A DNA stretch of 64,000 bases. It comes from a bacterium (GTDB lineage Bacteria; Hinthialibacterota; Hinthialibacteria; Hinthialibacterales; Hinthialibacteraceae). The notes beneath the pieces are model-generated. The model searched no databases, was not told the origin of the DNA, and saw only the letters and a program-made list of their open reading frames with translations. The stretch covers positions 1,248,001 through 1,312,000 of the forward strand of contig CAXXMV010000002.1 in assembly GCA_963662285.2 (NCBI GenBank). Reading direction: 5' to 3'. Shown one piece after another: positions 1 through 15,890 of this stretch (within the stretch, counting starts at the first letter, position 1; each line of letters starts with the position of its first letter). Both the position numbers and the translations under genes were made by a program.

Positions 1-2516
1 AATCTACTGTATCGGATGGATTGACTCGCGGGATATCTTCCGGTGCTGCACCAGGCCGGGCATTTGGCGTTCTGACTTATTTTGTTCAGGAAATTCAGTT
101 TAAGGATCGCGCCGCTCCCTATTCGATGGTTGCGGCGATAGACGCCAGTAAAGCGGGTAATACACTGTTCCCAAGTTTACAAGGCTTGCAGGATAATGAA
201 ATTATTCTCAATGACTGGTTAGCGCAGGATTTACAAGTCCAAAAGGGCGATGAACTGACATTGGTCTACAACGTATTAGGTCCCATGCGCAAATTGATAG
301 AGCGAAAACGTTCTTTTATGGTTCGCGACATTGTTGCAATGTCCGATCCGCTTAATGATCCATCCCTGATGCCTGATTTTCCCGGTATCACAAAAAGCGA
401 ACACTGCCGGGAATGGGACCCCGGTTTTACTATCGATCTGGATAAAATCCGCGACAAAGACGAAGACTATTGGGATCAATACAAAGGAACTCCCAAGGCG
501 TTTATTTCCCTGCAAACCGGACAAGAGATGTGGGCGAACCGTTTTGGAAATTTAACGGCCATCCGTTTTCAACACTCTGTCGCCCCGGATGCTCTAATAG
601 AAAAAGATATTGCCGCATTTCTGCAACCTTCCACAATGGGATTCGATTTTATCCCGGTGCGGGAATTAGCCCTTCGGGCGGTTAACCAGGCGATGAGTTT
701 CGGCCCGTTGTTTATCTCGCTCAGTTTCTTTTTGATCGTATCGGCTTTGATTCTAACCTCGCTGCTCTTTCTCTTCGGTCTGGAACAGCGCGCCAGCCAC
801 ACCGGTTTATTGTTCGCTTTGGGATACTCCAAAGCATTGATTCGAAAATTATATTTCTATGAAGTTATAGTACTCACGGTACTCGGAGGCGCCATCGGCG
901 TCTGGTTGGCGGCTCTCTACTCTCAGGGCATGATCTGGGCTTTATCGACAATCTGGAAAGACGCCGTTGCGGGGATCGAATTTGAAACGACGATTTCTCC
1001 GGCTACTATGATTTACGGCTTTTTAGCCAGCGTTATTACAACCATTCTGGTTATTTGGATTGGCATACGCCGTCAATCGAGGCTGCCGATTCCTTCTTTG
1101 CTCACCGCCAAAGCTGGCAGCATTATCGTAAATCAACAACCGTCGAATCGAGGTATATGGATTGCGTCGGCATCGTTTACCGGCGCGATCCTTTTATATT
1201 TTTTTTCATCACAAAACAGCGTTGCCGCCGCGACGGGGACATTCTTCGGAATTGGCGCTTTGCTGCTTATCACAGGCTTAGGTCTTAGCCACGCCTGCTT
1301 CTTCCGTTTCATGATGCAACAGGATGGCGCGAATCTTTCTCTTAAAAGTCTAGGCATCAGAAACACCGGAAGGAGACGCGGGCGCAGTTTGGCGGTTGTC
1401 GGATTACTGGCCAGCGGCGCCTTTCTCGTCATAGCGGTTGGCGCCAATCGTCAGGACGCATGGTTGGATGCGGAATTGGTCAATTCTGGAACGGGAGGAT
1501 TCGCCTATTACAGCGAAACCACCCTTCCGCTGATTCATGACTTGAATACCGAAGCGGGCTGTAATGAATTTGGATTATCCCTTTCCGATCTTCCCGGATT
1601 ACGGGTTTATCCGCTGCGTTTTCGTGAAGGAGACGATGCCAGTTGCTTGAACATGAACCGCGCCCAAAATCCCAAACTGCTTGGCGTTGATCCCCGGCTG
1701 TTCTCTTCACGCAAAGCGTTTTCTTTCGTGAGTACGGTTGATGGAGATACGAGTCCACAGCAAGCGTGGAAACTGCTTGACCGGAAATTCGATGATGGAT
1801 CGATCCCTGCGATTGTCGATCAATCGACCGCAATGTGGGCGCTAGGCAAATCGATTGGTGATACGCTTACTTATAAAGACGAGAGCGGCGCATCATTTCA
1901 GATTCGTCTGGTTGGATTTTTAGCCAATTCTATTTTCCAAGGCGCAGTGCTGATCTCTGATCAAAACTGCGTACAGAAATATCCCTCTGTCAGCGGATAC
2001 CGTGTTCTGCTGATGGATATCCCCAAACCGTTTCGAAGCGAATACCGTGGTATTTTGATGAATTCTCTGCAAGACCTGGGTATCGAGATGACGCCTTGCG
2101 GGGAACGTCTGGCTGCGTTTTTCGCCATTCAAAATGCGTATTTGTCGATCTTTCAGATACTAGGCGGCTTGGGGCTTATACTGGGAAGCATTGGCGTGGG
2201 AGTCGTGGTTATGCGGAATATCCTTGATCGGCGTTCTGAGTTCGCCTTGATGCGGGCGCTAGGTTTTTCTCATTCTTCCATCCGTTGGATGATTGTAACC
2301 GAGCACGCTTTTCTTTTGATTCTCGGTTTGGGGTGCGCAACGTTATCGGGTATTACGGCTTCTTTGCCTGCTTTACGTTTTCACTTGTCCACTTTTCCCT
2401 TTTTGTCGCTTACGTTAACCCTTATATTAATACTACTTAGCGGCTTGTTCTGGATTTACCTGTCAACGTTAATTGCTCTGCGGGAAAATCTCCTTACTTC
2501 ACTTCGCAGTGAGTAA
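1..2516 (+). CDS. FtsX/MacB-like ABC transporter permease (5'-truncated by window edge)
   Basis: Frame is open from base 3. Two FtsX-like TM blocks (LEQRASHTGLLFALGYS; LDRRSEFALMRALGFS) are separated by large extracytoplasmic domains. Confidence 0.85.
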   Translation, partial: STVSDGLTRGISSGAAPGRAFGVLTYFVQEIQFKDRAAPYSMVAAIDASKAGNTLFPSLQGLQDNEIILNDWLAQDLQVQKGDELTLVYNVLGPMRKLIERKRSFMVRDIVAMSDPLNDPSLMPDFPGITKSEHCREWDPGFTIDLDKIRDKDEDYWDQYKGTPKAFISLQTGQEMWANRFGNLTAIRFQHSVAPDALIEKDIAAFLQPSTMGFDFIPVRELALRAVNQAMSFGPLFISLSFFLIVSALILTSLLFLFGLEQRASHTGLLFALGYSKALIRKLYFYEVIVLTVLGGAIGVWLAALYSQGMIWALSTIWKDAVAGIEFETTISPATMIYGFLASVITTILVIWIGIRRQSRLPIPSLLTAKAGSIIVNQQPSNRGIWIASASFTGAILLYFFSSQNSVAAATGTFFGIGALLLITGLGLSHACFFRFMMQQDGANLSLKSLGIRNTGRRRGRSLAVVGLLASGAFLVIAVGANRQDAWLDAELVNSGTGGFAYYSETTLPLIHDLNTEAGCNEFGLSLSDLPGLRVYPLRFREGDDASCLNMNRAQNPKLLGVDPRLFSSRKAFSFVSTVDGDTSPQQAWKLLDRKFDDGSIPAIVDQSTAMWALGKSIGDTLTYKDESGASFQIRLVGFLANSIFQGAVLISDQNCVQKYPSVSGYRVLLMDIPKPFRSEYRGILMNSLQDLGIEMTPCGERLAAFFAIQNAYLSIFQILGGLGLILGSIGVGVVVMRNILDRRSEFALMRALGFSHSSIRWMIVTEHAFLLILGLGCATLSGITASLPALRFHLSTFPFLSLTLTLILILLSGLFWIYLSTLIALRENLLTSLRSE

Positions 2517-2539
2517 TTTGATCCTGATCTACAAAAGAA

Positions 2540-2566
2540 TTTTTCAGGAACAATATTCCTGAAAAA
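2540..2566. terminator. inverted repeat, possible terminator or operator
   Basis: TTTTTCAGGAA-caata-TTCCTGAAAAA just after the permease stop. Confidence 0.45.
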
Positions 2567-2681
2567 AACGACCTATTAAACAATTGTTGAATGGATAACT
2601 ATTTTTAATTCATTGGATAGAATAATAGTATTCAGTAAAATCATTATAGAAATACACAAACCACTAGGAGGATTTCAGTAG

Positions 2682-4007
2682 ATGAAGAGAAATTGTATAG
2701 CCTTACTTGTTATGCTAACCGTTTGGTCTGTTAGTGTATGCGGCGCCGATTGGCCGCAGTTTTTAGGTCCGGATAGAAACGCCGTATCACCGGAAACCGG
2801 ATTAGCCCGCAGTTGGCCTGAAAGCGGTCCACAAGTGAATTGGACTTTTCCTTTAGGCAGCGGATATGGCGCCCCGGCGGTTTTTAACGGTAAGGTCTAT
2901 GTTTTGGATAGAGTTGACAGCAGCCAGGATGTGTTGCGCTGCCTCGATCTGGGCACGGGTAAAGAAGAATGGTCTTTTGCTTATGATGCTCCGGGACGCG
3001 TCAGCCACTCTGGTTCACGATCCGTACCCTCAGTAGATGAACAGCGGATTTACACCTGTGGACCTCATGGGGACGTTTATTGCATTGACAAGACAACGCA
3101 TAAATCGCTTTGGAACAAGAATTTTAAAACCGATTTCGGAGAAGGCGCGAGATTAGGCTGGGGTTTCGGTCAGAATCCTTTACTTTATAAAGACATGCTG
3201 ATTGTGGCGCCGATGGCTTCAGAAGCAGGTGTGGTGGCGCTGGATAAGGTGACTGGCGAGATTCGCTGGAAGACGCCGCCGATGCCGGGAGGCGCAAGCT
3301 ACGTTTCTCCCACTATAATTAGTGTCGACGGGGTCGAACAGGTTGTCATGATAAGCGCTGCTGAACGATCCAGAAGACGTGGACGGGATCGTGATAGTGC
3401 GCCAAGTAGTGGAGACAATCCGGCGCCGGGCGCAAATAAAGGAAGCATTATAGGGTATGATCCCGCTACTGGACGGCAATTATGGATTTATAATGGCGGT
3501 TGGCAGTGTCAAATCCCTATCCCGAATTTAGTTTCTATCGGAGATGGCCGCTTTTTTATCACGGGCGGCTACGAAGCCGGTTCGGCTATGATTAAGATCA
3601 CAAAAACCGACCAGACTTACGCTGTTGAAGAATTATATACAACCCAAAATTTCGGCGCTCACATCCATCCACCTTTGCTGATTAAAGATAACCTTTACGG
3701 CCATTGCACCACCAATTCACGCCGTGATGGAATGGTGTGCATGAATGTGGATGGTAAACTTCAGTGGAAAACTGAACGATCACCTGTTTTCGATAAAGGT
3801 GGATTCATTTTAGCTGATGGGCTGATCTTCAGCGTTGACGGACGTGATGGATTTTTGTACTTGATCGATCCATCACCGGAAGGCTTCAAGCCTCTTGCCA
3901 AAGCGAAACTGCTCGAACCAGGCGAAGTCTGGTCACCCCTGGCGCTGGTCGATGGCAAATTATTGATCCGCGATCAGACCCAGATGAAATGCGTTACCGT
4001 CCGCTAA
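2682..4007 (+). CDS. secreted PQQ-binding-like (BamB-type) beta-propeller protein
   Basis: AGGAGG RBS, signal peptide, ADWPQFLGPDRN start, repeated LDxxTGxxxW blades, C-terminal LLIRDQ. Confidence 0.85.
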   Translation: MKRNCIALLVMLTVWSVSVCGADWPQFLGPDRNAVSPETGLARSWPESGPQVNWTFPLGSGYGAPAVFNGKVYVLDRVDSSQDVLRCLDLGTGKEEWSFAYDAPGRVSHSGSRSVPSVDEQRIYTCGPHGDVYCIDKTTHKSLWNKNFKTDFGEGARLGWGFGQNPLLYKDMLIVAPMASEAGVVALDKVTGEIRWKTPPMPGGASYVSPTIISVDGVEQVVMISAAERSRRRGRDRDSAPSSGDNPAPGANKGSIIGYDPATGRQLWIYNGGWQCQIPIPNLVSIGDGRFFITGGYEAGSAMIKITKTDQTYAVEELYTTQNFGAHIHPPLLIKDNLYGHCTTNSRRDGMVCMNVDGKLQWKTERSPVFDKGGFILADGLIFSVDGRDGFLYLIDPSPEGFKPLAKAKLLEPGEVWSPLALVDGKLLIRDQTQMKCVTVR

Positions 4008-4068
4008 TTGGCATGGATAATAATATGCCATAGCTAATAAATATATTTGGCTGGATTGTAATAATAAT

Positions 4069-4115
4069 CGGAATTGATCCTGGAACGGTTATATCCAGTG
4101 ATCAATTCCGTTTTT
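4069..4115 (+). terminator. Rho-independent terminator-like hairpin
   Basis: CGGAATTGATC-CTGGA ... TCCAG-T-GATCAATTCCG followed by TTTTT. Confidence 0.6.
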
Positions 4116-4203
4116 ATCATTACAATTATCATATAAGTTTTATGTTTATGATGGATCTGAATAAATCCTGTGCTGTGCTTTTGTCTAAGGATATTCTAGT
4201 AAT

Positions 4204-5427
4204 ATGGGTAAATGGTTGAAAATTGCGATTGCCACGGTTTTATTGCTTCTTCTTATCGGTCTCCTCGCGGGTCTGTTGATGATGAAAAGAGGTAATCAAT
4301 CCGGAGCAGTCCAGCAGGATATTCTCCAAAAAGAGAACAATGTCATAGGATCGTCGCAACAGCCTGCAAAAAAGTATGCGCCATGGCCGATGTTCCACGG
4401 TGATCCTCGCTTAACCGGGATTACCAATTGCGCTTTACCGGATGAACCTGTTTTTTACTGGAAATTTAAGACCGATGCGGCAATCATATCTTCAGCAGTT
4501 ATTAGCGATGGCCGCGTCTATATAGGATCGAAGGACTCAAACCTATATGCTTTAGACCTGTATAACGGAGAAGAAATCTGGCGCTTTACTACAGGGAAAT
4601 CGATTGAAGGTTCACCATGCCTGTTGGATGATACGGTTTATGTCGGCTCATCCGATTCGTTGGTTTATGCTGTCGACGCCTCGACTGGAGTCTTAAAATG
4701 GAAATACGATACCAGAGGCCGGATTTTAGGAGGCGTGAATTGGACTCGTGTTGCTGGTGAAGAGAACGCACGGATATTGGTAGGCAGTTATGACGCCAAA
4801 CTCCACTGCCTGAACTCAGAAACTGGAAAGCCGGTCTGGGTTTATAAATCAAATCACTACATACACGGTACGCCTGCTGTAGTGGATGGTCAGGTGGTTT
4901 TTGGCGGGTGCGACGCTCATGTCCATTTTGTTTCCGTTGATAACGGCGGGTTGAATGCCAAGGTAGATGTCGGTTCCTATATTGCCGCTTCGGCGGCGCT
5001 AGCAGACCAAAAGGTTTTTATCGGGCACTATGAAGGAAAGTTTCTATGCGTCGACGCTGAACAGAAGAAGGTCATCTGGGAGTACGAATTATCGAAACCC
5101 ATTTGTTCCACCGCCGCCTTGTCAGGCGACCGGATTGTCTTCGGCAGCCGAGACAATCGTCTGCATTGTATTGACCGGAATGCGGGAACCATGATATGGA
5201 CCTTCCGTACCCGCGACGACGTGGATTCAAGCCCGGTAATAGCTATCGACAAGGTCATTGTCGGTTCCGATGATGGCTATTTGTATATAGTAAGACTTGA
5301 TGATGGCAAGGAAATTTGGAAATACCAGATCGGCGCCTCTATAAAAGCATCTCCCGCTGTGGCCTATGATCGGATTGTCATTGGTGCGGAGGATGGTTAT
5401 ATCTATGCCTTCGGGCCGGAAATTTAA
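4204..5427 (+). CDS. membrane-anchored PQQ-like repeat (BamB-like) beta-propeller protein
   Basis: N-terminal TM helix, WPMFHGD, about 8 regular SSPxxxDGxVYxGSxDxxLYALD repeats. Confidence 0.85.
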   Translation: MGKWLKIAIATVLLLLLIGLLAGLLMMKRGNQSGAVQQDILQKENNVIGSSQQPAKKYAPWPMFHGDPRLTGITNCALPDEPVFYWKFKTDAAIISSAVISDGRVYIGSKDSNLYALDLYNGEEIWRFTTGKSIEGSPCLLDDTVYVGSSDSLVYAVDASTGVLKWKYDTRGRILGGVNWTRVAGEENARILVGSYDAKLHCLNSETGKPVWVYKSNHYIHGTPAVVDGQVVFGGCDAHVHFVSVDNGGLNAKVDVGSYIAASAALADQKVFIGHYEGKFLCVDAEQKKVIWEYELSKPICSTAALSGDRIVFGSRDNRLHCIDRNAGTMIWTFRTRDDVDSSPVIAIDKVIVGSDDGYLYIVRLDDGKEIWKYQIGASIKASPAVAYDRIVIGAEDGYIYAFGPEI

Positions 5428-5471
5428 CAATATTAAAAAGAACTGAATGTTTTCAGTGGCAGGAACAAGTA

Positions 5472-6893
5472 ATGGCGGATTCAGGATTGAAAAGAGTATA
5501 CGAGAAAGACTTTGTAATCGATAAGATAATTATCGGCAGTTTCGCCATAGCTGCGATTCTGTCTTTATGGCTTTGGCTCAGCGCCGGTCTGCCAATGCTT
5601 CTTAAGGAACGCGTTCCGGGAATGGATAATGCTGGCCAGAATTCTGCAACGGGCGGCAGCCGCACCGGGCCGGTTGGAGTCCTGACTACAGCGACGGGAA
5701 TCCCCGCTGATCTGAAGGGCGCATGGCCATGCTTTCGCGGTGAAAACTTAGACAATATCAGTAAGGATGTTTTTACGCCCCTCCCGGTCGGCGCAGGTTT
5801 TCCTGAACTTTGGGCTATTGATGTCGGCGAGGGACATGCCGGGGCGACAATCTGGGATGGCCGTGTTTATCTGATGGATTATGATCGAGAGAATAGCTCA
5901 GATGCTTTGCGTTGTCTTTCTCTGGCGGATGGTCAGGAAATCTGGCGTTATGCTTATCCGGTAAGGGTAAAACGCAATCATGGCATGAGCCGGACCACGC
6001 CTTATGTAACAGAAAATTTCGTGGTTTCACTGGGTCCCAAATGTCATGTCACTTGCCTGAATTCCATAAGCGGAGAGAAAAAATGGAGTTTGGATCTGGT
6101 GCAAGCATACGGCGCCAAAGTTCCACCCTGGTATGCCGGACAGTGTCCCCTGGTTGATCAGAATCGGGTTATCCTTGCGCCGGGCGGCTCTTCGCTTATG
6201 ATTGCTGTTGATCCTGAAACGGGGGAAACAATCTGGGAAACGCCCAATCCCAATGACTGGAAAATGACTCATACCTCCATCATGCCGATGGATTTCAAGG
6301 GAAAACGTATATACGTATACTGCGCCAGCGGCGGGATTACCGGCGTCTCCGCTGAAGATGGAAGCATCTTGTGGGAAAGTTCTGAATGGAAAATCCGCAT
6401 TGCCAATGTGCCTTCTCCAGTTGTGGTGGGAGAAGGATTGATCTTTCTCTGCGGAGGTTATGAGGCTGGCAGTATGATGATGCAACTGGAAGAGAAAGAT
6501 GGGCGCATCATTCCTAAATCTCTTTTCCGTATGCCTCCGGAGCGTTTCGGCTCAGCCCAGCAGACGCCGATTTTCTATAAAGGTTATATCTACGGAGTAA
6601 GGCCGGATGGCCAATTGGTTTGTTTTGATCTGGAAGGTAATGAAAAATGGACCAGCACCAGCGCTTACAAATTTGGTATGGGGCCTTACGCCATCGTCGG
6701 TTCACAGATTTACGTTATGAACGACTCTGGACTCTTAAGCCGGGTGGCGGCTGATTCAAAGGAGTTTCGTCTGCTCGATCAAACTCAGGTGTTGCACGGT
6801 CATGATTCATGGGGGCCGATAGCCTATGCCTCAGGCCGGATGATTCTTCGCGACCTTACTAAAATGGTCTGCCTGGATACGGTTGCTAGATGA
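5472..6893 (+). CDS. membrane-anchored PQQ-binding-like beta-propeller protein
   Basis: N-terminal TM, WPCFRG, GxxxW blades, C-terminal MILRDLTKMVCL; similar in layout to 2682..4007. Confidence 0.85.
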   Translation: MADSGLKRVYEKDFVIDKIIIGSFAIAAILSLWLWLSAGLPMLLKERVPGMDNAGQNSATGGSRTGPVGVLTTATGIPADLKGAWPCFRGENLDNISKDVFTPLPVGAGFPELWAIDVGEGHAGATIWDGRVYLMDYDRENSSDALRCLSLADGQEIWRYAYPVRVKRNHGMSRTTPYVTENFVVSLGPKCHVTCLNSISGEKKWSLDLVQAYGAKVPPWYAGQCPLVDQNRVILAPGGSSLMIAVDPETGETIWETPNPNDWKMTHTSIMPMDFKGKRIYVYCASGGITGVSAEDGSILWESSEWKIRIANVPSPVVVGEGLIFLCGGYEAGSMMMQLEEKDGRIIPKSLFRMPPERFGSAQQTPIFYKGYIYGVRPDGQLVCFDLEGNEKWTSTSAYKFGMGPYAIVGSQIYVMNDSGLLSRVAADSKEFRLLDQTQVLHGHDSWGPIAYASGRMILRDLTKMVCLDTVAR

Positions 6894-6921
6894 AGCATCG
6901 AATAGCAAGGAGCATGTGATA

Positions 6922-7932
6922 ATGAATACGCAACGGTCTTTTCATGCACAGAAACTGATCGTCCCCGTCATCGCATTGGCTGTTATATGCGCTCTCCTGT
7001 CGCTTTTCTTTTCGGATATCTTCGGTGAAAAGGGCAGCGGTTTAAGTGAGGAATTCACCTATGATTTAACGGAATTTCAAAAAACCGATCCGGCGCTGAT
7101 CCTATACGAAGAAACCGGGTCCAGGATTAAGGCTGGATTTGAACGGGCGCGCGCCATAGCGGTGAATTCCAAGGATCAGATTTATGTCGCCGGAGGCAAG
7201 GCCGTACATGCTTTCACTTCGAGTGGTAAACCATTACCTCTCGAGATCGAGTGTGAGCAGGAAATAACAGCCATAACAGTCGCGGATGACGATTCTATAT
7301 ATATTGGCGCCGGGGATCACATTGAAATCTTTGACCCGTCCGGCGCCTTGAAAAAACGATGGGAGCCTATTGATCCTAAAGCCCTGCTAACCTCAATCGC
7401 AATTTATAAAGAAGATGTATTTATCGCAGATGCCGGAAATCGGGTGGTGCACCATTTCAACATCTCAGGCGGCAAGAAAGAATCGTTTGGAGATTTCGTG
7501 ATTCCCAGCGCATATTTTGATCTGGCTATTTCTGCTGATGGTCTAATCCATCTGACTCACACCGGGGAACACCGTATTGAAACTTATGGCTTTGATGGCA
7601 ATTTGATATCCTGGTGGGGCGGGTTTTCCAATGATGATTACAAAGATTTTTGTGGATGCTGCAACCCTGTCAATTTCGCCATTCTTCCTGACGGCGGCGG
7701 TTACGTAACGTGTGAAAAGGGTCTTACCCGGATCAAACTTTATGATAATAAAGGCGTCTTCAAGGGATTCGTGGCTGGCCCCGAACAGTTTGAGCAGCAC
7801 GACGCTCTATGCGTTACTCCAGCGTATTGCTATGACCGGGTTGGGCTGGATACGGCGGTTGATTCAAAAGGCCGGGTATTAGCGCTAGACCCGATCTTGG
7901 CGGAAATACGTATATTCGAACTAAAAAAGTAA
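6922..7932 (+). CDS. membrane-anchored NHL-like beta-propeller with CGCCNP motif
   Basis: ATG at 6922 after AAGGAG; TM anchor; NHL-like repeats (AIAVNSKDQIYVAG, VFIADAGNRVV, AVDSKGRVLALD). Confidence 0.75.
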   Translation: MNTQRSFHAQKLIVPVIALAVICALLSLFFSDIFGEKGSGLSEEFTYDLTEFQKTDPALILYEETGSRIKAGFERARAIAVNSKDQIYVAGGKAVHAFTSSGKPLPLEIECEQEITAITVADDDSIYIGAGDHIEIFDPSGALKKRWEPIDPKALLTSIAIYKEDVFIADAGNRVVHHFNISGGKKESFGDFVIPSAYFDLAISADGLIHLTHTGEHRIETYGFDGNLISWWGGFSNDDYKDFCGCCNPVNFAILPDGGGYVTCEKGLTRIKLYDNKGVFKGFVAGPEQFEQHDALCVTPAYCYDRVGLDTAVDSKGRVLALDPILAEIRIFELKK

Positions 7933-7955
7933 TGAAGTAATACCGGAGATTTAAT

Positions 7956-8186
7956 ATGAGTCGACTAACAGAAGAAATCAAAAGCCGGCGTGATCTGCTG
8001 CGGGCTATAGGCCGCGCCATCTCCCTGGGTTGTCTGGCGATTATAGGAGGCGTGGTTATGTTAAGGAAAAGCAATTCTCAACAAGGGCAGGCCTGCCGGA
8101 ATCTCGATCTCTGCCAGGGATGCAAGGTTTTCGAGCGCTGCGCATTACCTCAGCGCTTAACTCTGGGAAAAAATGACAAGGAATAG
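7956..8186 (+). CDS. small Cys-rich protein with twin-arginine-like signal/anchor
   Basis: GGAG RBS, SRRDLL plus hydrophobic stretch, C-x5-C-x2-C-x5-C; overlaps the next gene. Confidence 0.65.
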   Translation: MSRLTEEIKSRRDLLRAIGRAISLGCLAIIGGVVMLRKSNSQQGQACRNLDLCQGCKVFERCALPQRLTLGKNDKE

Positions 8187-8787: not shown

Positions 8788-10097
8788 TGATTGCTCATAC
8801 CATGCCGTTCCTTATGTCGCTCATAGGTCTGGCCGCTCCAGCCGGGGATGTAGAGCGGTTTCCACCGCCGGATTTTGATGGTGGACATATTCTGCCCTCT
8901 ACTCAAATCCCTCTGCCCAGGGCTGAACTGTGGAACTACCTGGATGTGGCAGTGCTGTTTCTCGCGCTTTCTTTGGCCTCTTATTTAGTCATTAAAAAGC
9001 GCAGCCGCCGCGGCATCTTTATGCTCACTATTTTCTCCTTGGTCTATTTCGGATTCATCAGACAAGGATGCATCTGTTCCATTGGCGCCATTCAGAATAT
9101 TACGCTGGCTCTTTTTGATCAAACCTACGCCATCCCTTTTGCTGCGGCTGCTTTTTTTCTATTGCCGCTGCTCTTCAGCCTTTTCTTCGGGCGGGTATTT
9201 TGTTCGGGGGTCTGTCCATTGGGAGCGATTCAAGACCTGGTGTTAATCAAACCTGTTAAAATTCCCCGGTGGCTCCAGCATTCTCTTGGTTTACTGCCCT
9301 ACCTTTATCTTGGCGCGGCGGTGCTGTTCGCCGCAATGGGTAGTGTGTTCATTATCTGTAAATACGATCCCTTTGTGGCCTTTTTTCGCCTGTCGGGTAA
9401 TGCAAACATTATTGTATTGAGTATATCCATGCTTGTGATTAGCATGTTTGTCGGGCGGCCATACTGCCTTTTCCTCTGTCCTTATAGCGTACTGCTGCGG
9501 TTTCTTTCCCGTTTTTCCCAATGGCGGGTGACGGTTGCTCCGGATGAGTGCTTAAAGTGCCGGTTGTGCGAGGCGGCGTGTCCCTTCGGCGCCATTACCG
9601 ATCCCACGCCGGAAGATATGCGCCCTCCTGATACCACAGACCGGAGACGTCTGGCCGGGTTGCTGCTCTCTGCGCCGTTGATCATCATTCTCTGTGGATG
9701 GATTTTCTCGTATGCCGGAGATCCTTTTTCCCGCATGCATTTCACGGTCCGCTTAGCCGAGAGGATTGTTCTCGAAGACAGTGGTAAAGTAGACCTGATA
9801 TCCGATGCCAGCAAAGCGTTTCGGGATACCGGAAAATCCAAAGAAATCCTTTTTGAAGAAGCCAAAATTTTACGGCGCCAATTTTCGTTTGCCGGATGGC
9901 TTCTGGGATGTTTTATGGGATTGGTGATTATCGGCAAATTAATCGGGCTGTCAGTGTTTAGAAAACGAATCGATTACGAAGCTGATCGCGCCGGATGTCT
10001 GGCTTGTGGCCGTTGTTTTGTTTACTGCCCCCTTGAACCTGAGCGGCTGCACGAGTGCCAATATGCGCAGGTGGATCGAGTATTAGAAGAAAAATGA
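8787..10097 (+). CDS. NapH/MauN-like polytopic membrane 4Fe-4S binding protein
   Basis: ATG overlaps the upstream stop (TGATG); many TM helices; CSGVCP and CLFLCP motifs; CLKCRLCEAACP and CLACGRCFVYCP ferredoxin motifs. Confidence 0.85.
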   Translation: MIAHTMPFLMSLIGLAAPAGDVERFPPPDFDGGHILPSTQIPLPRAELWNYLDVAVLFLALSLASYLVIKKRSRRGIFMLTIFSLVYFGFIRQGCICSIGAIQNITLALFDQTYAIPFAAAAFFLLPLLFSLFFGRVFCSGVCPLGAIQDLVLIKPVKIPRWLQHSLGLLPYLYLGAAVLFAAMGSVFIICKYDPFVAFFRLSGNANIIVLSISMLVISMFVGRPYCLFLCPYSVLLRFLSRFSQWRVTVAPDECLKCRLCEAACPFGAITDPTPEDMRPPDTTDRRRLAGLLLSAPLIIILCGWIFSYAGDPFSRMHFTVRLAERIVLEDSGKVDLISDASKAFRDTGKSKEILFEEAKILRRQFSFAGWLLGCFMGLVIIGKLIGLSVFRKRIDYEADRAGCLACGRCFVYCPLEPERLHECQYAQVDRVLEEK

Positions 10098-11857
10098 ATC
10101 AGACAATGAATGACAATAATAAACATGACATGCGTTGGTATTCCACTGTCAGGGGAATCGCCGTTGTTTCAGGCGTCTTCTCTCTGATTGTAGCTGGTTT
10201 GCTTATGCAAAACTACATAGCCGATCAGCGGGGGCTTCCAGAGAAAGAAGCCCTCTATTCAGCAAAACTGGTGCAGCAGAAAGAACTGCTCAGCCAAAAT
10301 CCGCGTAGTGAAGAGATAAAAAATGAGCTGCGGGGCCTGGACCTTGAACTAAGACAGGGATATTTCCAGCGCAAGGCTTTCGCCCGGCGGGGAAAGTATC
10401 TTCTTCTGGTAAGCATCGCGGTTTTCTTGCTGGCCATGAAAAAAGCAATATCCCTGAAGCAGGCGCTGGCGATGCTCGAACCTGAATTCCGGGATCAGGA
10501 TATCGAAGCGAAAAGCAGGATGCAGGCGCGATGGGCGGTGGGTATGCTTGGAATTATCATAGTCGGCGGCATCCTGGCTTTGGCTTTCACGCCCGGAATT
10601 GAACTGGTCTCTACTCCTATAGATTCAGGTGAAGATTCTACTCCTCCTCAACCGGAATATCCCACTGATGAAGAGTATCAAAATAACTGGCCTATATTCC
10701 GTGGTCATGGTGGGATGGGGATTTCCACTCATAGCGATGCGCCTACATCCTGGAATGGAGAGAACGGTGAAGGCATCCTGTGGAAAACCAAGACGCTGCT
10801 GCCGGGTAACAACTCTCCCATCGTCTGGGGTGACCGGATATTCATTTCTGGAGCCAATGAGACGGAAAAAGTGGTTTATTGCTATTCAACCGATTCCGGC
10901 GAACTGCTGTGGCAAGAACGGGTTGAAACGCCCCAAAGCACTGCTGCCAAAGATGATCTACAGATTTTTGAAGATACTGGTTATGCGGCTTCCACCATGG
11001 CTTGTGATGGCTCGCGGGTCTATGCGGTGTTCATTGATGGCGATATCGCCTGTTTCGATTTAGAAGGGCGTAGAGTCTGGGTAAAAAACCTGGGAATACC
11101 GGATAGTATTTACGGGTATGCAACCTCTCTTGTGGTGTATAATACTCTTGTGTTGGTGCAATACGACCAGGGCGAAGCCGATGACGACAAATCGGCGCTC
11201 TTTGCCCTGGAAGGAAAAACCGGGCAGATCGTATGGCGCAAGCAACGGCCTGTCGCCAATACATGGACCTCTCCGATTCTTATCGATACCGGCGCAGGAA
11301 AGCAATTTGTTACATGCTCAGAACCGTGGGTGATCGCCTATGATCCCGACACGGGAGATGAACTCTGGAAAGCCCAGCTGATGGGCGTGGATCTCGCCCC
11401 TTCTCCTATCTATGCCAATGGTTTGGTCTTCGTGATTCAGCCCAACGAAACATTGTTCGCAATCCGCCCTGATGGCCGGGGGGATGTGACGGAAACTCAT
11501 GTGGCTTGGACCGTCGATTGCATTGCGCCTGACATTTGCAGCCCGGTAAGCAACGGGAAACTGATCTTCCTGCTTACCACGCCAGGCGTTCTCACATGCT
11601 ACGACGCGACCAGCGGCGATATGATCTGGGAGCATGAAATGGATGACGCATTTCAGTCGTCTCCCAGTATTGCGGGGGAGTGGATTTATCTGTTAAGCGA
11701 AGAAGGCGTGACATACCGGATCAAAGCCTCTGACAAGTACGAGGAAGCCGAAAGCAAATCCTATTTGGACGAATGGCTGAAAGCCTCACCCGCCTTCATG
11801 GATGGCCGGATATTTATTCGAGGCGATATGCATTTGTACGGCATCGGGGAAAAATGA
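10094..11857 (+). CDS. PQQ-binding-like beta-propeller fused to an N-terminal 3-TM domain
   Basis: ATGA overlap at 10094; three hydrophobic helices, then NWPIFRG...GNNSPIVWGDRIF...SPAFMDGRIFIRG. Confidence 0.85.
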   Translation: MNQTMNDNNKHDMRWYSTVRGIAVVSGVFSLIVAGLLMQNYIADQRGLPEKEALYSAKLVQQKELLSQNPRSEEIKNELRGLDLELRQGYFQRKAFARRGKYLLLVSIAVFLLAMKKAISLKQALAMLEPEFRDQDIEAKSRMQARWAVGMLGIIIVGGILALAFTPGIELVSTPIDSGEDSTPPQPEYPTDEEYQNNWPIFRGHGGMGISTHSDAPTSWNGENGEGILWKTKTLLPGNNSPIVWGDRIFISGANETEKVVYCYSTDSGELLWQERVETPQSTAAKDDLQIFEDTGYAASTMACDGSRVYAVFIDGDIACFDLEGRRVWVKNLGIPDSIYGYATSLVVYNTLVLVQYDQGEADDDKSALFALEGKTGQIVWRKQRPVANTWTSPILIDTGAGKQFVTCSEPWVIAYDPDTGDELWKAQLMGVDLAPSPIYANGLVFVIQPNETLFAIRPDGRGDVTETHVAWTVDCIAPDICSPVSNGKLIFLLTTPGVLTCYDATSGDMIWEHEMDDAFQSSPSIAGEWIYLLSEEGVTYRIKASDKYEEAESKSYLDEWLKASPAFMDGRIFIRGDMHLYGIGEK

Positions 11858-11895
11858 TTTCCGGTTAAGCGCGATTCTATAAATAAGCGAACTTA

Positions 11896-14307
11896 ATGAC
11901 TCAACAATCCTCTATTAGGAACACGTTATTGCCAATGGATAGTATGATAGATCAAAATACCATAAATCTGAATCAGGCGGTTGATCAAGCAGTCGCGCAT
12001 CATGGCCGCGATTCGGAAGCGGTTATACCGATTCTGCAAGAGTTGCAGAAGCAATTCCGCTATCTGCCTGAAGACGCCTTGCGCAGAGTGTGCGAGATTA
12101 CAGATATCACCCCTGCTGACTTGACCGGAGTGTCTACGTTTTTTGATCAGTTTCGCCATCGTCCGGTAGGGCGTCATATGATTAGCGTCTGTCATGGAAC
12201 CGCGTGTCACGTAAAAGGCGCAGACCGGATCACCGAAGCGATACAACGCCATTTGGGGCTTGATGACGATAATGACACTGACGTCGATGCATGTTTCACC
12301 CTTCAAAAAGTGGCTTGCCTGGGATGCTGCACGCTGGCGCCAGCCGTTCAGATTGATGATGTGACCTATGGGCACATGCTCCCTGAGCGGACGCCCCGTA
12401 TGCTGATGGATTTTCTCGAACTCAAAAAACAAAATCCATCAACGCCAGTCAATAAATCTTCGCTCCATAATGGCGGTAGCGCCGGTGAACTCAGGATCAG
12501 CCTGGGGTCTTGCTGCGTCGCCAGAGGCAGCGGCAAGATACTTGAGGCGCTTGAGGAAGTCATGCTGCGATACGGCATTCAAGCCAACGTCAAACCGGTC
12601 GGGTGCGTCGGTATGTGTCATCAGACGCCGCTTCTGGAAGTGATCCCCCCGGAAGGCGACGCCCACTTTTACGCCCGTGTTCTTCCCGAAGACGCGGAAG
12701 CCATTCTGCTAAACCATTTCAAGCCGCAGAGTTATTTCAAAAAACTACAGGGATCGATTTCAAGAACCTTGAACTTTCTTTTGACTGGAGAATCACAACA
12801 TCCTATTAGTCAGCGAATGATTCATCTTCAGGATGAGCCGGTCGCTGCTTTTCTTCATAAACAACAACATATTGCCACGGCCTACAGTGGACAACTCGAT
12901 CCCACCGATCTTGATGAATACAGAAGCCATGACGGCTTCACCGCTCTCGAACAGGCCATACAAAGTTCTACGCCGGAAGAGATAATCGCCCGTATCACGG
13001 CCAGTGGTCTGAGAGGCCGGGGCGGCGCCGGTTATCTGACCGGCCTTAAATGGTCCAAAGTTCAACAGACCGCTGAGCAAACACGGTATGTGATATGCAA
13101 TGGCGATGAAGGCGACCCTGGAGCATTTATGGATCGCATGCTGATGGAGTCATACCCTTATCGCGTTATTGAGGGGATGATCATCGCCGCTTATGCAGTT
13201 GGCGCTCAACAAGGCTATTTCTATATACGTGCCGAGTATCCCCTGGCGGTGAGCAGAATCAAGCAAGCCTTGAAGCAATGTCGGGAGCATGGACTGCTGG
13301 GTGAGCGGATATTGGGCAGCGCGTTTAACTTTGATCTAGAGATCAAGGAGGGGGCGGGCGCTTTTGTCTGTGGAGAAGAATCTGCATTGATTGCTTCAAT
13401 CGAAGGTCAGCGGGGAATGCCCCGGCTTCGACCCCCATATCCTGCTGAATGTGGTCTTCGGGAAAAACCGACTTTAGTGAATAACGTTGAAACCTGCACG
13501 CTTATCCCGGCTATCTTGCGTGACGGCCAGGAGACATTTCTCTCGCTGGGCACAAAATCGAGCGCGGGAACCAAAGTCTTTTCATTAGCAGGAAAAGTGG
13601 TTCGGGGTGGATTGATTGAAGTGCCGATGGGCATCAGTTTAAGAGAATTAGTGGAAGAGATCGGCGGGGGAGTGCGGGAAGGAAGGCGTTTCAAAGCTAT
13701 CCAGGTGGGCGGCCCTTCAGGCGGCTGCATCCCGGCGGAACAGACCGATGTCCCCATTGATTACGAATCGCTCTCCAGTCATGGAGCGATCATGGGATCA
13801 GGCGGTCTGGTCGTACTCGACGATGAAGATTGCATGGTGGATATGGCGCGGTATTTTCTGGAATTCACCCGGGAACAGTCATGCGGCAAATGCACATTCT
13901 GCCGGGTCGGTTCATTGCGGATGTTGGACATTCTCGAAAAACTTTGTGAGGGAAAAGCATCCCGTGGCGATTTGGAAAAACTGGAATCCTTGGCTGGTTT
14001 GGTTCAGCAGGGCAGCCTCTGCGGGCTGGGCAAGACGGCGCCTAATCCAGTGTTAACTACTCTCAGGCATTTTCGCAGTGAATACGAAGCTCATCTTGAG
14101 GGACGGTGTCCGGCTGGCAGGTGCCGTTCCTTGATTACATATTCCATAACCAGTGAATGCGTGGGCTGTACGCTTTGCGCTCAGAATTGTCCGACGCAGG
14201 CCATTGCCGTGAAGCCTTATGAACGGCAGGTGATTGATGTAGACCGTTGCGTCCGGTGCGGCGCGTGTCTCAATGTGTGCCCGGTTCAGGCAGTCAGGAA
14301 GGAATAG
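11896..14307 (+). CDS. fused HydC/NuoE + HydB/NuoF-like NAD(H)/FMN Fe-S flavoprotein
   Basis: NuoE motifs CHGTAC and CLGCC; second thioredoxin-like [2Fe-2S] domain (GSCC...GCVGMC); GLRGRGGAG, CNGDEGDPGAFMDR, GAGAFVCGEE, SCGKCTFC, SLCGLG, HLEGRCPAGRC; C-terminal 2x[4Fe-4S]. Confidence 0.9.
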   Translation: MTQQSSIRNTLLPMDSMIDQNTINLNQAVDQAVAHHGRDSEAVIPILQELQKQFRYLPEDALRRVCEITDITPADLTGVSTFFDQFRHRPVGRHMISVCHGTACHVKGADRITEAIQRHLGLDDDNDTDVDACFTLQKVACLGCCTLAPAVQIDDVTYGHMLPERTPRMLMDFLELKKQNPSTPVNKSSLHNGGSAGELRISLGSCCVARGSGKILEALEEVMLRYGIQANVKPVGCVGMCHQTPLLEVIPPEGDAHFYARVLPEDAEAILLNHFKPQSYFKKLQGSISRTLNFLLTGESQHPISQRMIHLQDEPVAAFLHKQQHIATAYSGQLDPTDLDEYRSHDGFTALEQAIQSSTPEEIIARITASGLRGRGGAGYLTGLKWSKVQQTAEQTRYVICNGDEGDPGAFMDRMLMESYPYRVIEGMIIAAYAVGAQQGYFYIRAEYPLAVSRIKQALKQCREHGLLGERILGSAFNFDLEIKEGAGAFVCGEESALIASIEGQRGMPRLRPPYPAECGLREKPTLVNNVETCTLIPAILRDGQETFLSLGTKSSAGTKVFSLAGKVVRGGLIEVPMGISLRELVEEIGGGVREGRRFKAIQVGGPSGGCIPAEQTDVPIDYESLSSHGAIMGSGGLVVLDDEDCMVDMARYFLEFTREQSCGKCTFCRVGSLRMLDILEKLCEGKASRGDLEKLESLAGLVQQGSLCGLGKTAPNPVLTTLRHFRSEYEAHLEGRCPAGRCRSLITYSITSECVGCTLCAQNCPTQAIAVKPYERQVIDVDRCVRCGACLNVCPVQAVRKE

Positions 14308-14309
14308 GG

Positions 14310-15890
14310 ATGGTTCGAGTAATCATAGATAGACAGGAAATCGATATGCCGGATGGCGCCACGATTCTCGATGCGGCATGCAAATTGGGAATTTCCATCC
14401 CCACCATGTGCTTTCTCGAAGGGAGGAAGCCACAGACGTCCTGTATGGTTTGCCTGGTGAAGACCCGGAATCCAGACCGGCTGGTTCCCGCCTGCGGCAC
14501 TCCGGTGCATGATGGTTTGGAAGTAGAAAGCGAAACGGAAGAAGTCCATCAAGCCAGAAAGGCCGCGCTGGAACTCTTGTTGAGCGAACACGTCGGAGAA
14601 TGTCTGGCGCCTTGTCATACCATCTGTCCTGCCGGGATGAATGTCCCCCGTATGATTCGACAGATAGAAGCAGGAGAAATGGCGCAAGCCATCTGTACGG
14701 TCAAAGCGGATCTGGCGCTGCCTGCCGTGTTAGGCCGGATTTGCGAGGCGCCGTGTGAGAACGGTTGTCGTCGAAAGGCTCATGATGACGCCGTGTCGAT
14801 CTGTTTGCTTGAACGTCATGTCGCAGACTGGGACCTGGCGCAAGATGAATCCTACTTGCCCCCATGCAAGCCGGATCAGAACAAGCGGGTAGCCATAGTG
14901 GGCGCCGGTCCAGCCGGATTGGCGGCGGCGTATCAGCTCCAGCAGGAAGGCTATGGATGCACGGTATTCGATGATCATGACCAGCCGGGAGGCAGCCTGC
15001 GGTATGAGGTTTCAGAGAGTGTTCTTTCCCGTGATGTTCTTCAGGCTGAAATCGGATTGATCGGGAAAATCGGCGTACGGTTTCTTATGGAGACGCGGAT
15101 TGGCGACCAGCTTTCTTTCGAGGATTTGCAGAGAGATTATGATGCCGTGCTTGTAACGGCAGGGGCGGTTCAACCAGATGCTGCTGAGGAATGGACGCGG
15201 ATTTTTGGACCGGGTGGAATCGAAGCGGATAGGAAAACATTCGAAACCCGCTTGCCGGGAGTCTTTGCCGCAGGCAGCGTACTTCGTCCTGAAAAGTATG
15301 CTGTGCGAGCGCTTGCCCAGGGCAAGAAGGCTGCTTTTTCCATAGCGCAGTATCTTAGCGGTGAACCTGTCACTGGTTATGCCAAAGAATTCACCACCAG
15401 CATCGGTAAGTTGACTGAAAGAGAGATGGATTGCTTCCTCTCGCTTGCCAGCCCGGTCGGACAGGTTGTTCCTGCCAATGGAATCGAAGAGGGCTTGCAA
15501 GAAAACGAGGCCCGCGAGGAAGCCATGCGCTGCTGCAAGTGCGGTTGCGACAGTCCATCTGACTGTAAATTAAGACTATACTCCGCCGCTTATGATGCGC
15601 GGCCGGGTCGGTTCAAAGGAGAGCGTAAGGAATTCTTGACGCTGCTTCAGCACCCAAACGTAATACACAACCCGGGTAAATGCATCCTATGCGGATTATG
15701 CATACAAATCACGAAGGATGCTGCTGAAGAACTTGGTCTGGCTTTCGCGGGTCGTGGATTTGAGGTAAAGGTTGTCGTGCCGTTTGGCGGTTCGATGAAA
15801 GACGGGTTAGCCCGTGTTGCATCGGAATGCGTCGAGGCATGTCCAACTGGAGCATTAGTTTTCAAAGAAGAAGATGATTGCCGCGAATAG
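14310..15890 (+). CDS. NuoG/HydA-N-terminal Fe-S domain + GltD/NfnB-like FAD/Fe-S domain + C-terminal 2x[4Fe-4S] (StnC/NsoC-like, shortened)
   Basis: ATG 14310; IPTMC..SCMVC..LVPAC [2Fe-2S]; APCHTICP and LGRICEAPCENGC; VAIVGAGPAG; C-terminal KCILCGLC and ECVEACPTGAL. Confidence 0.85.
   Translation: MVRVIIDRQEIDMPDGATILDAACKLGISIPTMCFLEGRKPQTSCMVCLVKTRNPDRLVPACGTPVHDGLEVESETEEVHQARKAALELLLSEHVGECLAPCHTICPAGMNVPRMIRQIEAGEMAQAICTVKADLALPAVLGRICEAPCENGCRRKAHDDAVSICLLERHVADWDLAQDESYLPPCKPDQNKRVAIVGAGPAGLAAAYQLQQEGYGCTVFDDHDQPGGSLRYEVSESVLSRDVLQAEIGLIGKIGVRFLMETRIGDQLSFEDLQRDYDAVLVTAGAVQPDAAEEWTRIFGPGGIEADRKTFETRLPGVFAAGSVLRPEKYAVRALAQGKKAAFSIAQYLSGEPVTGYAKEFTTSIGKLTEREMDCFLSLASPVGQVVPANGIEEGLQENEAREEAMRCCKCGCDSPSDCKLRLYSAAYDARPGRFKGERKEFLTLLQHPNVIHNPGKCILCGLCIQITKDAAEELGLAFAGRGFEVKVVVPFGGSMKDGLARVASECVEACPTGALVFKEEDDCRE

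Follow-up and report, generated by a model that had tools for sequence, protein, structure and literature searches.

Introduction

Described bacterial systems such as NapGH, NosGH and MauMN pair a NapH-type iron-sulfur (Fe-S) membrane protein with a polyferredoxin that is exported via twin-arginine translocation (Tat), and NosR/NirI and PceC are further NapH-type proteins. According to passages of Méheust et al. (PMC8238504), NapH-type modules serve periplasmic enzymes, several of which are propellers, and most of the flavinylated NapH-like systems described there have unknown reactions. Here, a gene cluster is analyzed which places relatives of such a module next to relatives of the Bfu enzymes NfnABC/StnABC, to beta-propeller genes and to an ATP-binding cassette (ABC) permease. 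It occupies positions 1-15890 of a 64,000-nucleotide stretch of contig CAXXMV010000002.1 (GenBank assembly GCA_963662285.2, phylum Hinthialibacterota), and this whole stretch is referred to as the window. An initial annotation, made from the sequence letters, had described the cluster as a candidate trans-envelope redox system in which electrons pass between NADH or ferredoxin and extracytoplasmic propellers.

The cluster is a real, conserved and apparently undescribed bacterial system, with no description of it found by full-text searches of the openly accessible literature. The picture drawn by the initial annotation is right in outline, while its cytoplasmic module and its set of core parts need correction. 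For the reading favored here the chances appear to be even: the cluster would encode one multi-protein system and not three neighboring ones, in which electrons from NADH run over an Fe-S conduit to periplasmic propellers with the assistance of an ABC machine. A single system is favored because the gene order is conserved, because the near-invariable neighbor of the truncated BfuA subunit is the conduit, and because gene fusions as well as patterns of presence and absence agree with it. Transmembrane electron transfer by NapH-type proteins is still unresolved, and the family analyzed here is a version of it with a defined cytoplasmic donor and no hemes. If the reading is true, it adds a membrane-coupled member to the Bfu enzymes, a family whose function is set by the third reaction.

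Gene order, conservation and distribution

The NapH-like gene was used as anchor in contigs from one genome per species. Of 588 pattern matches, 583 proved to encode a relative, and the 80 best of these, which are the closest relatives of the query and not a random sample of the 583, were taken together with flanks of 10 kb. Loci were searched by tblastn with 21 proteins of the cluster, the counts refer to loci with room at the expected place, and the taxa of the holder loci were taken from record titles. The recurring order starts with a propeller, a GT4 glycosyltransferase, an ABC ATPase, the permease, prop3, the NHL protein, the mini-protein, the ferredoxin, the NapH-like protein and TMprop (for all names see Table 1). 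It continues with NuoEF, the GltD-like protein (with a Tat FMN_red flavoprotein on the other strand) and two further propellers. Next to the NapH-like gene, the ferredoxin was found in 72 of 72 loci, TMprop in 70 of 70, the NHL protein in 64 of 68, NuoEF in 55 of 63, and both the GltD-like protein and prop3 in 49 of 60. The permease (25 of 45), the ATPase (24 of 42) and GT4 (18 of 42) were adjacent at fewer loci. Prop1 and prop2 are missing from the commonest gene order at other loci (tblastn), and prop1 is an extra copy of this lineage with orthologs in the loci L002, L173 and L174.

A reciprocal set with the GltD-like protein as anchor (593 pattern matches, of which 560 were confirmed and the best 80 kept) contained NuoEF in 63/66, TMprop in 55/58, the NapH-like protein in 49/51, the ferredoxin in 45/48 and the NHL protein in 42/47 loci; about 16 of its contigs also belong to the NapH-anchored set, so that the two sets are not independent. 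By these conservation counts the gene arrangement is far beyond chance. A lack of co-conservation between the propeller genes and the HydBC/NuoG-GltD genes elsewhere had been named in the initial annotation as an outcome that would speak against its proposal; the two groups of genes do in fact travel together.

The NapH-anchored loci belong mostly to Planctomycetota, and further ones to Verrucomicrobiota, Omnitrophota, Poribacteria, Armatimonadota and others, to which the GltD-anchored set adds Aminicenantes, KSB1, Victivallales and Chthonomonadales. Cultured holders within the Pirellulaceae are Rhodopirellula sp. SM50, Novipirellula herctigrandis, Stieleria sedimenti and Aporhodopirellula aestuarii. 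The family is very large and extends over Planctomycetota, Verrucomicrobiota, Omnitrophota, Poribacteria, Armatimonadota, Aminicenantes, KSB1 and the phylum of the window. As it is so widely distributed, a periplasmic redox reaction of this kind may be common in sediments, soils and sponges.

Within the window all 11 genes are located on the plus strand (open reading frame (ORF) listing, Pfam, NCBIfam), and their co-directional arrangement with overlaps at 8787 and 10094 and a tiny gap at 14307/14310 is present as it had been annotated. The start of the NapH-like gene overlaps the stop of the ferredoxin gene (TGATG at 8785-8789), the start of the TMprop gene overlaps the stop of the NapH-like gene (ATGA at 10094-10097), and 2 bases separate the NuoE-NuoF and the GltD-like gene. 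The ferredoxin gene itself starts 14 bases inside the mini-protein gene. AT-rich spacers of 165 and 196 bases with hairpins flank prop1 (2516/2682 and 4007/4204). Promoter-like sites in 1-16500 number 18, compared with 19.2 in shuffled sequences, and terminator-like sites 25, compared with 19.0; the numbers thus match those of shuffled sequences and do not bear on the operon structure. Upstream, the cluster reaches about 10 kb beyond the window start. Its 3′ end lies at 15890, next to a glucose-6-phosphate dehydrogenase gene on the opposite strand (15922-17466). This gene and an SMP-30/gluconolactonase-like gene (together at 15922-18300, minus strand) converge on the cluster end, an adjacency which was not seen at other loci.

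Table 1. Genes of the cluster within the window and genes found in the 15 kb upstream of the window start.
Gene product	Position	Strand	Evidence
FtsX/MacB-type permease, C-terminal 837 amino acids (aa)	1-2516	+	Pfam FtsX twice, MacB_PCD
prop1, exported PQQ_2/BamB-like beta-propeller	2682-4007	+	PF13360 E 1.6e-17
prop2, membrane-anchored PQQ_2/BamB-like propeller	4204-5427	+	PF13570 E 1.8e-70, PF13360 E 2.6e-44
prop3, membrane-anchored PQQ_2/BamB-like propeller	5472-6893	+	Pfam
NHL six-blade propeller, 336 aa, N-terminal membrane anchor	6922-7932	+	Predicted fold; no Pfam match
Mini-protein, 76 aa, twin-arginine, 4 Cys	7956-8186	+	Motif C-x5-C-x2-C-x5-C-x2-P
Tat-exported 16-Cys ferredoxin	8173-8787	+	RR plus four C-x2-C-x2-C...C groups
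NapH-like polytopic membrane Fe-S protein	8787-10097	+	PF12801 Fer4_5, Fer4_7
TMprop, three predicted transmembrane (TM) helices, then PQQ_2 propeller	10094-11857	+	PF13360 E 1.4e-25
NuoE-NuoF (HydC-HydB, BfuC-BfuB) fusion	11896-14307	+	Pfam
Truncated BfuA (NfnA/StnC-like; NuoG-N-terminus/GltD-like)	14310-15890	+	Pfam, structure alignments
Tat-signal FMN_red/WrbA-like flavoprotein	L001:2175-2864, 12.1-12.8 kb upstream of window start	+	Pfam, TRR(D/N)FV motif
ArsR	Upstream of window start	+	Pfam
TsuA/YeeE-like transporter	Upstream of window start	+	Pfam
Five further PQQ_2 propellers	Upstream of window start	+	Pfam
GT4 glycosyltransferase	Upstream of window start	+	Pfam
LolD-like ABC ATPase	Directly upstream of permease	+	TIGR02211

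The core and its ABC machine

Within the phylum of the window, a NapH-like match at E <= 1e-60 was found in 22 of 35 genomes and in 13 of the 18 high-quality genomes; seven of the 22 matches are shorter and belong to two other families of the same class. Two groups of genomes were defined by the NapH-like gene alone, five with it (G013, G018, G022, G024 and G025; 94-99% complete) and five without it (G008, G009, G020, G021 and G028; 93-98% complete), which are kin and not independent samples. The permease as well as the NHL protein were present in all five genomes with the NapH-like gene and in none of the five without it. The GltD-like protein in its full (truncated) length was found in one of the five (G013) and in none of the other group. 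In G013, G018 and G025 the permease is encoded on a different contig than the NapH-like gene, and in five core-bearing genomes of other phyla a permease relative of 1130-1279 aa is located elsewhere.

Consequently, the ABC machine belongs to the core of the system together with the genes for the membrane and periplasmic parts, and the NADH module is a frequent but not universal input. Two assumptions of the initial annotation have to be revised here. The ABC permease is not a mere add-on, as it tracks the NapH-like gene. The HydBC/GltD genes, on the other hand, are not a fixed part, as four of the five close relatives holding the core and the genomes of three Verrucomicrobiota loci (L045, L051 and L054), which have the NHL protein, the mini-protein, the ferredoxin, the NapH-like protein and TMprop, yielded no full-length match.

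The full permease has a length of 1113 aa, with its gene beginning 826 bases before the window start, and is a duplicated FtsX/MacB-type protein (type VII ABC) with both halves in one chain. An ABC ATPase, which was sought upstream of it as initially proposed, was found there as a LolD-like protein whose stop codon overlaps the permease start. The ATPase reaches 260.6 bits against the LolD model TIGR02211 (cut-off 307.75) and the permease 19.8 bits against the LolC/E model (cut-off 362.45), both being below the cut-off.

The occurrence of GT4 and of a LolD-like ATPase in the commonest gene order could point to the handling of an envelope lipid or glycolipid, in which the ABC machine would extract a membrane lipid made with GT4, and the conduit would act on this lipid, by reduction or another modification, on the outer side of the inner membrane. 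Polyprenyl synthase genes flank three loci and a 1-deoxy-D-xylulose-5-phosphate (DXP) synthase gene one, which would be in line with this idea. Yet only 18 of 42 loci have GT4 next to the other genes, no terpenoid gene was found around the cluster (33 kb upstream, 48 kb downstream), and no lipid-binding domain was recognized, which leaves lipid handling with a slim probability.

The same patterns bear on the question whether separate systems are simply often adjacent, namely a soluble Bfu-like oxidoreductase, a quinol dehydrogenase formed by the NapH-like protein and the ferredoxin, and an envelope-biogenesis unit of ABC machine, GT4 and propellers. The missing full-length match to the Bfu module in the core-bearing genomes mentioned above, the limited adjacency of GT4 (18/42) and the ABC ATPase (24/42), and the Novipirellula genome, in which the GltD-like gene lies about 83 kb away from the core, would fit such an assembly; in one Pirellulales metagenome-assembled genome this gene is likewise found away from the core. 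However, the truncated BfuA by itself lacks a domain for binding a substrate and is found beside the conduit in 49 of 51 loci, the stop/start overlaps span the supposed boundaries, and the permease and the NHL protein co-vary with the NapH-like gene even when unlinked. It is thus very unlikely that the genes form separate systems.

The cytoplasmic module

The NuoE-NuoF (HydC-HydB) fusion, which had been annotated as a cytoplasmic part, was confirmed by its Pfam domains, i.e., 2Fe-2S_thioredx in two stretches, Complex1_51K, NADH_4Fe-4S and a C-terminal Fer4 pair, with residues 1-190 being the NuoE/HydC part. Its closest solved relatives are NfnB/StnB and the HydB of bifurcating hydrogenases (9bov_B with E 4.3e-210, 8oh5_B and 9n5u_B), and the alignment to 9n5u_B covers residues 199-800 including the C-terminal 2x[4Fe-4S] domain. 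Against the respiratory NuoF model TIGR01959 the fusion scores 477.7 bits and thereby stays below the cut-off of 558.65. With these full-length matches to NfnB and HydB, the fusion contains all elements of a BfuBC core, namely the flavin mononucleotide (FMN)/NADH site, the C-terminal 2x[4Fe-4S] domain and the [2Fe-2S] cluster of BfuC.

The second cytoplasmic protein had been described as a NuoG/GltD-like subunit. NuoG- and GltD-type parts are indeed seen, as the protein comprises an N-terminal [2Fe-2S] domain, Fer4_20 clusters, a Rossmann motif for flavin adenine dinucleotide (FAD) and NuoG-type C-terminal clusters, but it is more properly classified as a BfuA of the NfnA/StnC type that has lost two domains. 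Its closest relatives are NfnA/StnC (9bov_A with E 3.1e-100, followed by 8oh5_C and 9n5u_A). Residues 1-288 align to residues 3-289 of 9bov_A and residues 296-520 to residues 445-675, and about 155 chain residues (about 290-444 of 9bov_A, 8oh5_C and 9n5u_A) lack a counterpart. As the protein ends at residue 526, which is aligned near chain residue 675 of 1178, the Fdh/NuoG-like domain is absent. A GxGxxG dinucleotide motif at position 198 occurs in 48 of 48 family members, whereas a second one is absent in 39 of the 48, with the nine second matches being at inconsistent places; the cluster ligands and the FAD motif are retained in the family. By these alignments the subunit is an NfnA/StnC-type BfuA without the NAD(P)H-binding subdomain and without the Fdh-like domain.

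As both domains are lost, the module is not an Nfn transhydrogenase, and an Nfn-type unit is present in ancestry but not in function. Lacking a nicotinamide site of its own, the truncated BfuA needs a partner. Its third port can be read as no longer taking NADPH and as exchanging electrons with this partner instead, which, judging from gene adjacency, would be the NapH-like protein.

The complete BfuBC core, including the C-terminal ferredoxin-facing dicluster domain, would also suit an inward flow, in which a periplasmic propeller enzyme oxidizes a low-potential donor and the conduit passes the electrons to the Bfu core, which bifurcates them to NAD+ and ferredoxin. According to sections of PMC11829005 and PMC12018979, the A subunit of the solved relatives feeds mid- or low-potential electrons to the bifurcating site, and a part of PMC8238504 mentions that NapH-like proteins were proposed to accept electrons from periplasmic propeller oxidases, e.g., ExaA. 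However, no cofactor signature of known oxidases was found with Pfam, NCBIfam and the prop3 profile, the core is also present without the Bfu module, and its holders include Pirellulaceae isolates. These isolates are aerobic, and a low-potential periplasmic donor is not obvious in them. An inward flow is thus considered unlikely.

The membrane protein and the exported ferredoxin

A NapH/MauN-like membrane part had been annotated, and Fer4_5 and a ferredoxin domain were indeed found, although the score remains below the cut-off for this family (43.9 bits against TIGR02163 with a cut-off of 213.05, and 36.3 bits against NF007013 with a cut-off of 234). The C-terminal ferredoxin domain is split by a TM hairpin. 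Among 8000 candidates scored, 4316 relatives were obtained at E <= 1e-10, and among the matches listed 120 relatives exhibit an identity of 55-70%. A model of the protein built from 21 sequences was poor (predicted local distance difference test (pLDDT) 53.4).

Both annotated Tat proteins have conserved twin-arginine motifs and cysteine sets. In the ferredoxin, RR at 26-27 and 16 cysteines in four groups are invariant, and by number these cysteines should suffice for four [4Fe-4S] clusters. No NapG/MauM model is among the 11 NCBIfam matches at E <= 0.001, so that membership of the ferredoxin in this family is not supported by sequence. In the mini-protein RR is conserved in at least 90% of the members and R20, C47, C53, C56, C62 and P65 are invariant. 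It was detected by tblastn in 26 of 70 loci and, with a hidden Markov model (23 members), beside the ferredoxin in 58 of 62. In the loci L017 and L028 one translated reading frame joins the mini-protein, including its Tat signal, directly to the N-terminus of the mature ferredoxin, and in L025 the same arrangement is indicated by the ORF span only. The fusion in L017 and L028 argues that both proteins belong to a single unit, in which the four cysteines would form a fifth site, and the mini-protein probably provides the periplasmic ferredoxin with an additional site for a metal or cluster.

In a complex prediction for the NHL protein with the ferredoxin and the mini-protein a median score of 0.36 was obtained (runs 0.36, 0.41 and 0.01; best of three controls 0.00). 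Of 80 solved complexes, 58 passed the mark used for such predictions, and of 110 mismatched pairs, 2 did so; only 7 of the 80 solved complexes, along with both of these mismatches, passed it with a score of 0.60 or less. The runs share at least 43% of contacts, and the partner pLDDT is at least 86. The prediction hints faintly at a docking of the NHL protein with ferredoxin and mini-protein.

The proposed topology, with a cytoplasmic flavoprotein, a NapH-like membrane protein, a Tat ferredoxin and exported propellers, fits with the domains and signal motifs. The term trans-envelope, in contrast, appears to go too far, as the exported parts all look anchored in or beside the inner membrane and an outer-membrane component was not found in the cluster.

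The propellers

All five propellers that had been counted among the exported parts were identified, i.e., three PQQ_2 proteins, the NHL protein and TMprop. None of them reaches the curated cut-offs for BamB or for PQQ dehydrogenases (NCBIfam); prop2 is the best BamB scorer with 154 bits against TIGR03300 (cut-off 285.2), and the other copies reach 40-69 bits. The copy that travels with the NHL protein is prop3, in which 51 columns are invariant, including H170, H267, M265, D136-Y137-D138 and four cysteines. Compared with solved structures, its profile matched only generic propellers (the designed 'Cake' and BamB), with quinoprotein dehydrogenases at E 1e-5 or weaker and tetrathionate hydrolase at E 0.002, and no cofactor residues could be aligned.

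The 336-aa protein without a Pfam match is a six-blade propeller of the NHL type. A model based on 40 sequences reached a pLDDT of 91 and a predicted template modeling score of 0.83, and the best Foldseek matches were the NHL domains of TRIM3, Thin, TRIM2 and Brat (probability 1.00; E ~1e-15 for TRIM2, TRIM3 and Brat). Within the family (40 to 63 members) C246, C247, N248 and P249 are invariant and C244 is conserved in at least 90%, which yields a CxCCNP motif; D200, W232, T263, E265, K266 and K272 are invariant as well. A profile search against 1.84 billion representatives resulted in 2158 proteins at E <= 1e-30, with nearly all of the best 150 matches being single-domain proteins of 320-370 aa, and an ESM Atlas search with the NHL protein gave only unnamed NHL clusters. 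The vicinal cysteines of CxCCNP are the only candidate reactive site of the cluster, and because of them a thiol-based chemistry is, quite tentatively, favored. In a single case, the 816-aa protein P0263, an ortholog of prop3 (48% identity over 465 residues) is fused to the NHL domain, which could be a gene-calling artifact.

A second NHL-repeat protein (305 aa) is encoded in the window in a row with a solute-binding protein, a 529-aa ORF without a Pfam match and an ABC ATPase (57632-62172, plus strand, overlapping ends). It is unrelated to the CxCCNP family, as NHL searches within the phylum gave one match per genome.

The many invariant His, Met, Asp and Cys residues in prop3 would also be compatible with a maturation or maintenance machine, in which the conduit, together with the ABC machine, would build a site in one propeller or maintain it in the reduced state, with that propeller being the real enzyme for an unrelated substrate. 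In the Nos system NosR/NosGH plus NosDFY serve the NosZ propeller, and MauM/MauN go with the propeller of methylamine dehydrogenase (MADH) and its small Cys-rich subunit. The same types of parts, i.e., a NapH-type protein, a Tat ferredoxin, an ABC machine, propellers and a small Tat Cys-protein, occur together in the cluster, and the ABC permease co-varies with the core. Nevertheless, no similarity to NosZ, NosD, NosL, MauA, MauB or MauG was found in the cluster, the permease is of the MacB/FtsX and not of the NosY type, and a metal chaperone was not found in the cluster. A Nos- or Mau-like role therefore appears improbable.

Proposed mechanism and points to be weighed

From the parts, motifs, conservation and co-variation observed, we infer as follows in which direction electrons would flow in a single system, how its parts would dock and what chemistry would result. 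The Bfu-type module, composed of the HydC-HydB fusion and the truncated NfnA-like subunit, would take electrons from NADH at the FMN site, possibly exchange electrons with ferredoxin at its C-terminal dicluster domain, and hand them to the cytoplasmic clusters of the NapH-like protein. The latter would move the electrons across the inner membrane via its CX3CP-type and periplasm-side cysteine sites, and the Tat four-cluster ferredoxin together with the 4-Cys mini-protein would extend this wire. The wire may terminate at the membrane-anchored NHL propeller with CxCCNP as the most likely reactive site, where the best guess is a reduction of a dithiol/disulfide or persulfide type; prop3 and TMprop could act as partner or scaffold. 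Periplasmic mechanical work would be supplied by the type VII ABC machine with its LolD-like ATPase and its 1113-aa MacB-like permease. In relatives without the NADH module, the conduit would have to draw on another donor, either quinol as in NapGH or a soluble ferredoxin.

Several observations weigh against this scheme. No cofactor site, substrate or terminal enzyme was identified in the cluster, and the propellers match only generic folds of the BamB/PQQ or NHL type. The distribution of the core in the phylum is patchy and in a relative of the same family (G010:C1:198904-199329) the match to the NapH-like gene is fragmentary and interrupted by two in-frame stops, which suggests a decay of the system in that genome and thus a dispensable function. 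As no full-length NADH module was matched in four of the five close relatives, and no full-length GltD-like relative was found anywhere in the three Verrucomicrobiota genomes, NADH is not the universal donor. In the family of the truncated BfuA, the second FAD motif has the consensus GVFAAGxAV and has not kept the aspartate that NfnA carries there (GD), for which reason FAD would only tentatively be placed in this subunit. According to sections of PMC11829005 and PMC12018979, the third port of solved Bfu enzymes handles couples near -400 mV, a potential that a simple disulfide reduction would not need. At the periplasmic end the NHL protein has no Tat signal and hence cannot carry a pre-assembled cluster, and the verdict on its complex with ferredoxin and mini-protein was weak, with no interface being reported.

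Beyond the single system as such, the cluster could represent a new kind of energy-coupled periplasmic machine, with a heme-free Fe-S wire carrying electrons of low potential, a third port of Bfu refashioned for docking to a membrane protein, cofactor-less propellers with vicinal cysteines and an ABC motor acting on the substrate. Taken as a whole this remains rather doubtful.

Neighboring genes

A hydrogenase, a molybdopterin enzyme or a cytochrome c had not been seen in the initial annotation, and neither these nor another standard terminal enzyme were found by a Pfam scan of ORFs of at least 100-190 aa that reached 33 kb upstream and 48 kb downstream. This includes the region just upstream, where a standard catalytic subunit was looked for. 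Flanking ORFs at other loci were surveyed by Pfam scans of variable neighbors and of loci without the Bfu module and by clustering of 382 ORFs; of 181 ORFs within 500 bases of the conserved block, 70 co-directional ones and 23 others were covered by Pfam. Among the ORFs and loci surveyed no recurrent reductase was found. Recurring families were sulfatases (8 loci), DUF5060/apiosidase-like proteins (8), GFO_IDH_MocA (6), Sde182-like proteins (4) and a 260-aa dicluster protein (4), and AhpC/TSA-redoxin proteins flank two loci.

Genes with an FGE-sulfatase domain abut the core in two of three close relatives examined (L172:6185-7081 and L173:3924-4796), and in G013 such a gene lies about 2.5 kb from the permease (G013:C40:21052-21696). 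FGE proteins were absent from about 160 other loci (two queries, tblastn E <= 1e-8) and from the 70 Pfam-scanned neighbors, and these genomes are rich in the domain, with between 8 and 47 matches per genome. The link to the cluster is therefore no more than a lead. Based on this proximity, the substrate in the lineage of the window may be connected to sulfatase maturation or to another FGE-type reaction that needs a periplasmic reductant.

Downstream of the cluster, 17 loci (with some contigs shared between the sets) encode a Cys-rich family of about 180 aa with four TM helices and the pattern CPxC...CPCGYG...CxxCPx4CPW (e.g., L005:13815-14426, L016:18916-19419 and L042:19400-19957), which has no Pfam match and is not matched in the genome of the window (tblastn E <= 1e-5).

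The Tat FMN_red flavoprotein heads the supercluster upstream of the window and adjoins the GltD-like gene in eight distinct Planctomycetota loci (55-61% identity), and every printed N-terminus of its orthologs carries the TRR(D/N)FV twin-arginine motif. As an exported flavoprotein with no NAD(P)H within reach, it could be a client of the conduit. Further upstream, about 16-22 kb from the window, a complete rRNA operon is located (16S, two tRNAs, 23S and 5S; L166:11369-16664), beyond which a B12-binding radical SAM gene and two WD40 propellers follow. On the downstream side, the window contains a 549-aa protein with a signal-peptide-like N-terminus (18477-20126, minus strand), which has no Pfam or NCBIfam match. 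It also contains two BlaI-type repressors, the first followed by an 874-aa BlaR1/M56 protein (33011-36030) and the second at 39331-39702, and PPIase-domain proteins near these repressors (39802-40812 and 42466-44331).

Comparison with known systems

In analogy to described systems, the cluster appears to work like a NapGH, NosGH or MauMN conduit which is coupled to a Bfu core. By sequence comparison it lacks features that define NfnABC, and its proteins score below the curated cut-offs for NapH, NuoF, BamB and LolCDE.

With NapGH, NosGH and MauMN it shares a polytopic Fer4_5 protein with cytoplasmic ferredoxin clusters beside a Tat-exported 16-Cys ferredoxin. It differs from them in a score far below the NapH cut-off, in the ferredoxin domain that is split by a TM hairpin, in the absence of an FMN-binding domain, ApbE and a reductase from the cluster, and in its likely donor, which would be a cytoplasmic flavoprotein and not only quinol. 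The clusters of Méheust et al., as presented in passages of PMC8238504, contain FMN-binding domains and ApbE, both of which are missing here.

The resemblance to NfnABC/StnABC (PDB 9bov, 8oh5 and 9n5u) lies in the HydC-HydB fusion, which matches NfnB/StnB over its full length including the dicluster domain, and in the GltD-like subunit, which shares the [2Fe-2S] domain, the Fer4_20 clusters, the FAD motif and the NuoG-type clusters. In contrast to these enzymes, subunit A of the cluster lacks the NAD(P)H subdomain (about 155 residues) as well as the Fdh/NuoG-like C-terminus, B and C are fused, and the genes alongside encode membrane and exported proteins. The main text of PMC11829005, by contrast, nowhere uses the word 'membrane'.

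The propellers have the eight-blade repeat signature of the PQQ_2 type in common with BamB and PQQ-dependent dehydrogenases, but the copies of the cluster have either an inner-membrane anchor or a plain signal peptide, and their scores stay below the cut-offs. Similarly, the LolD-like ATPase and the permease with MacB_PCD and FtsX domains are related to MacB, LolCDE and FtsEX of the type VII ABC group, from which they differ by the fusion of both permease halves into one chain of 1113 aa, by sub-cut-off scores for LolD and LolCE, and by being tied to a redox conduit and propellers.

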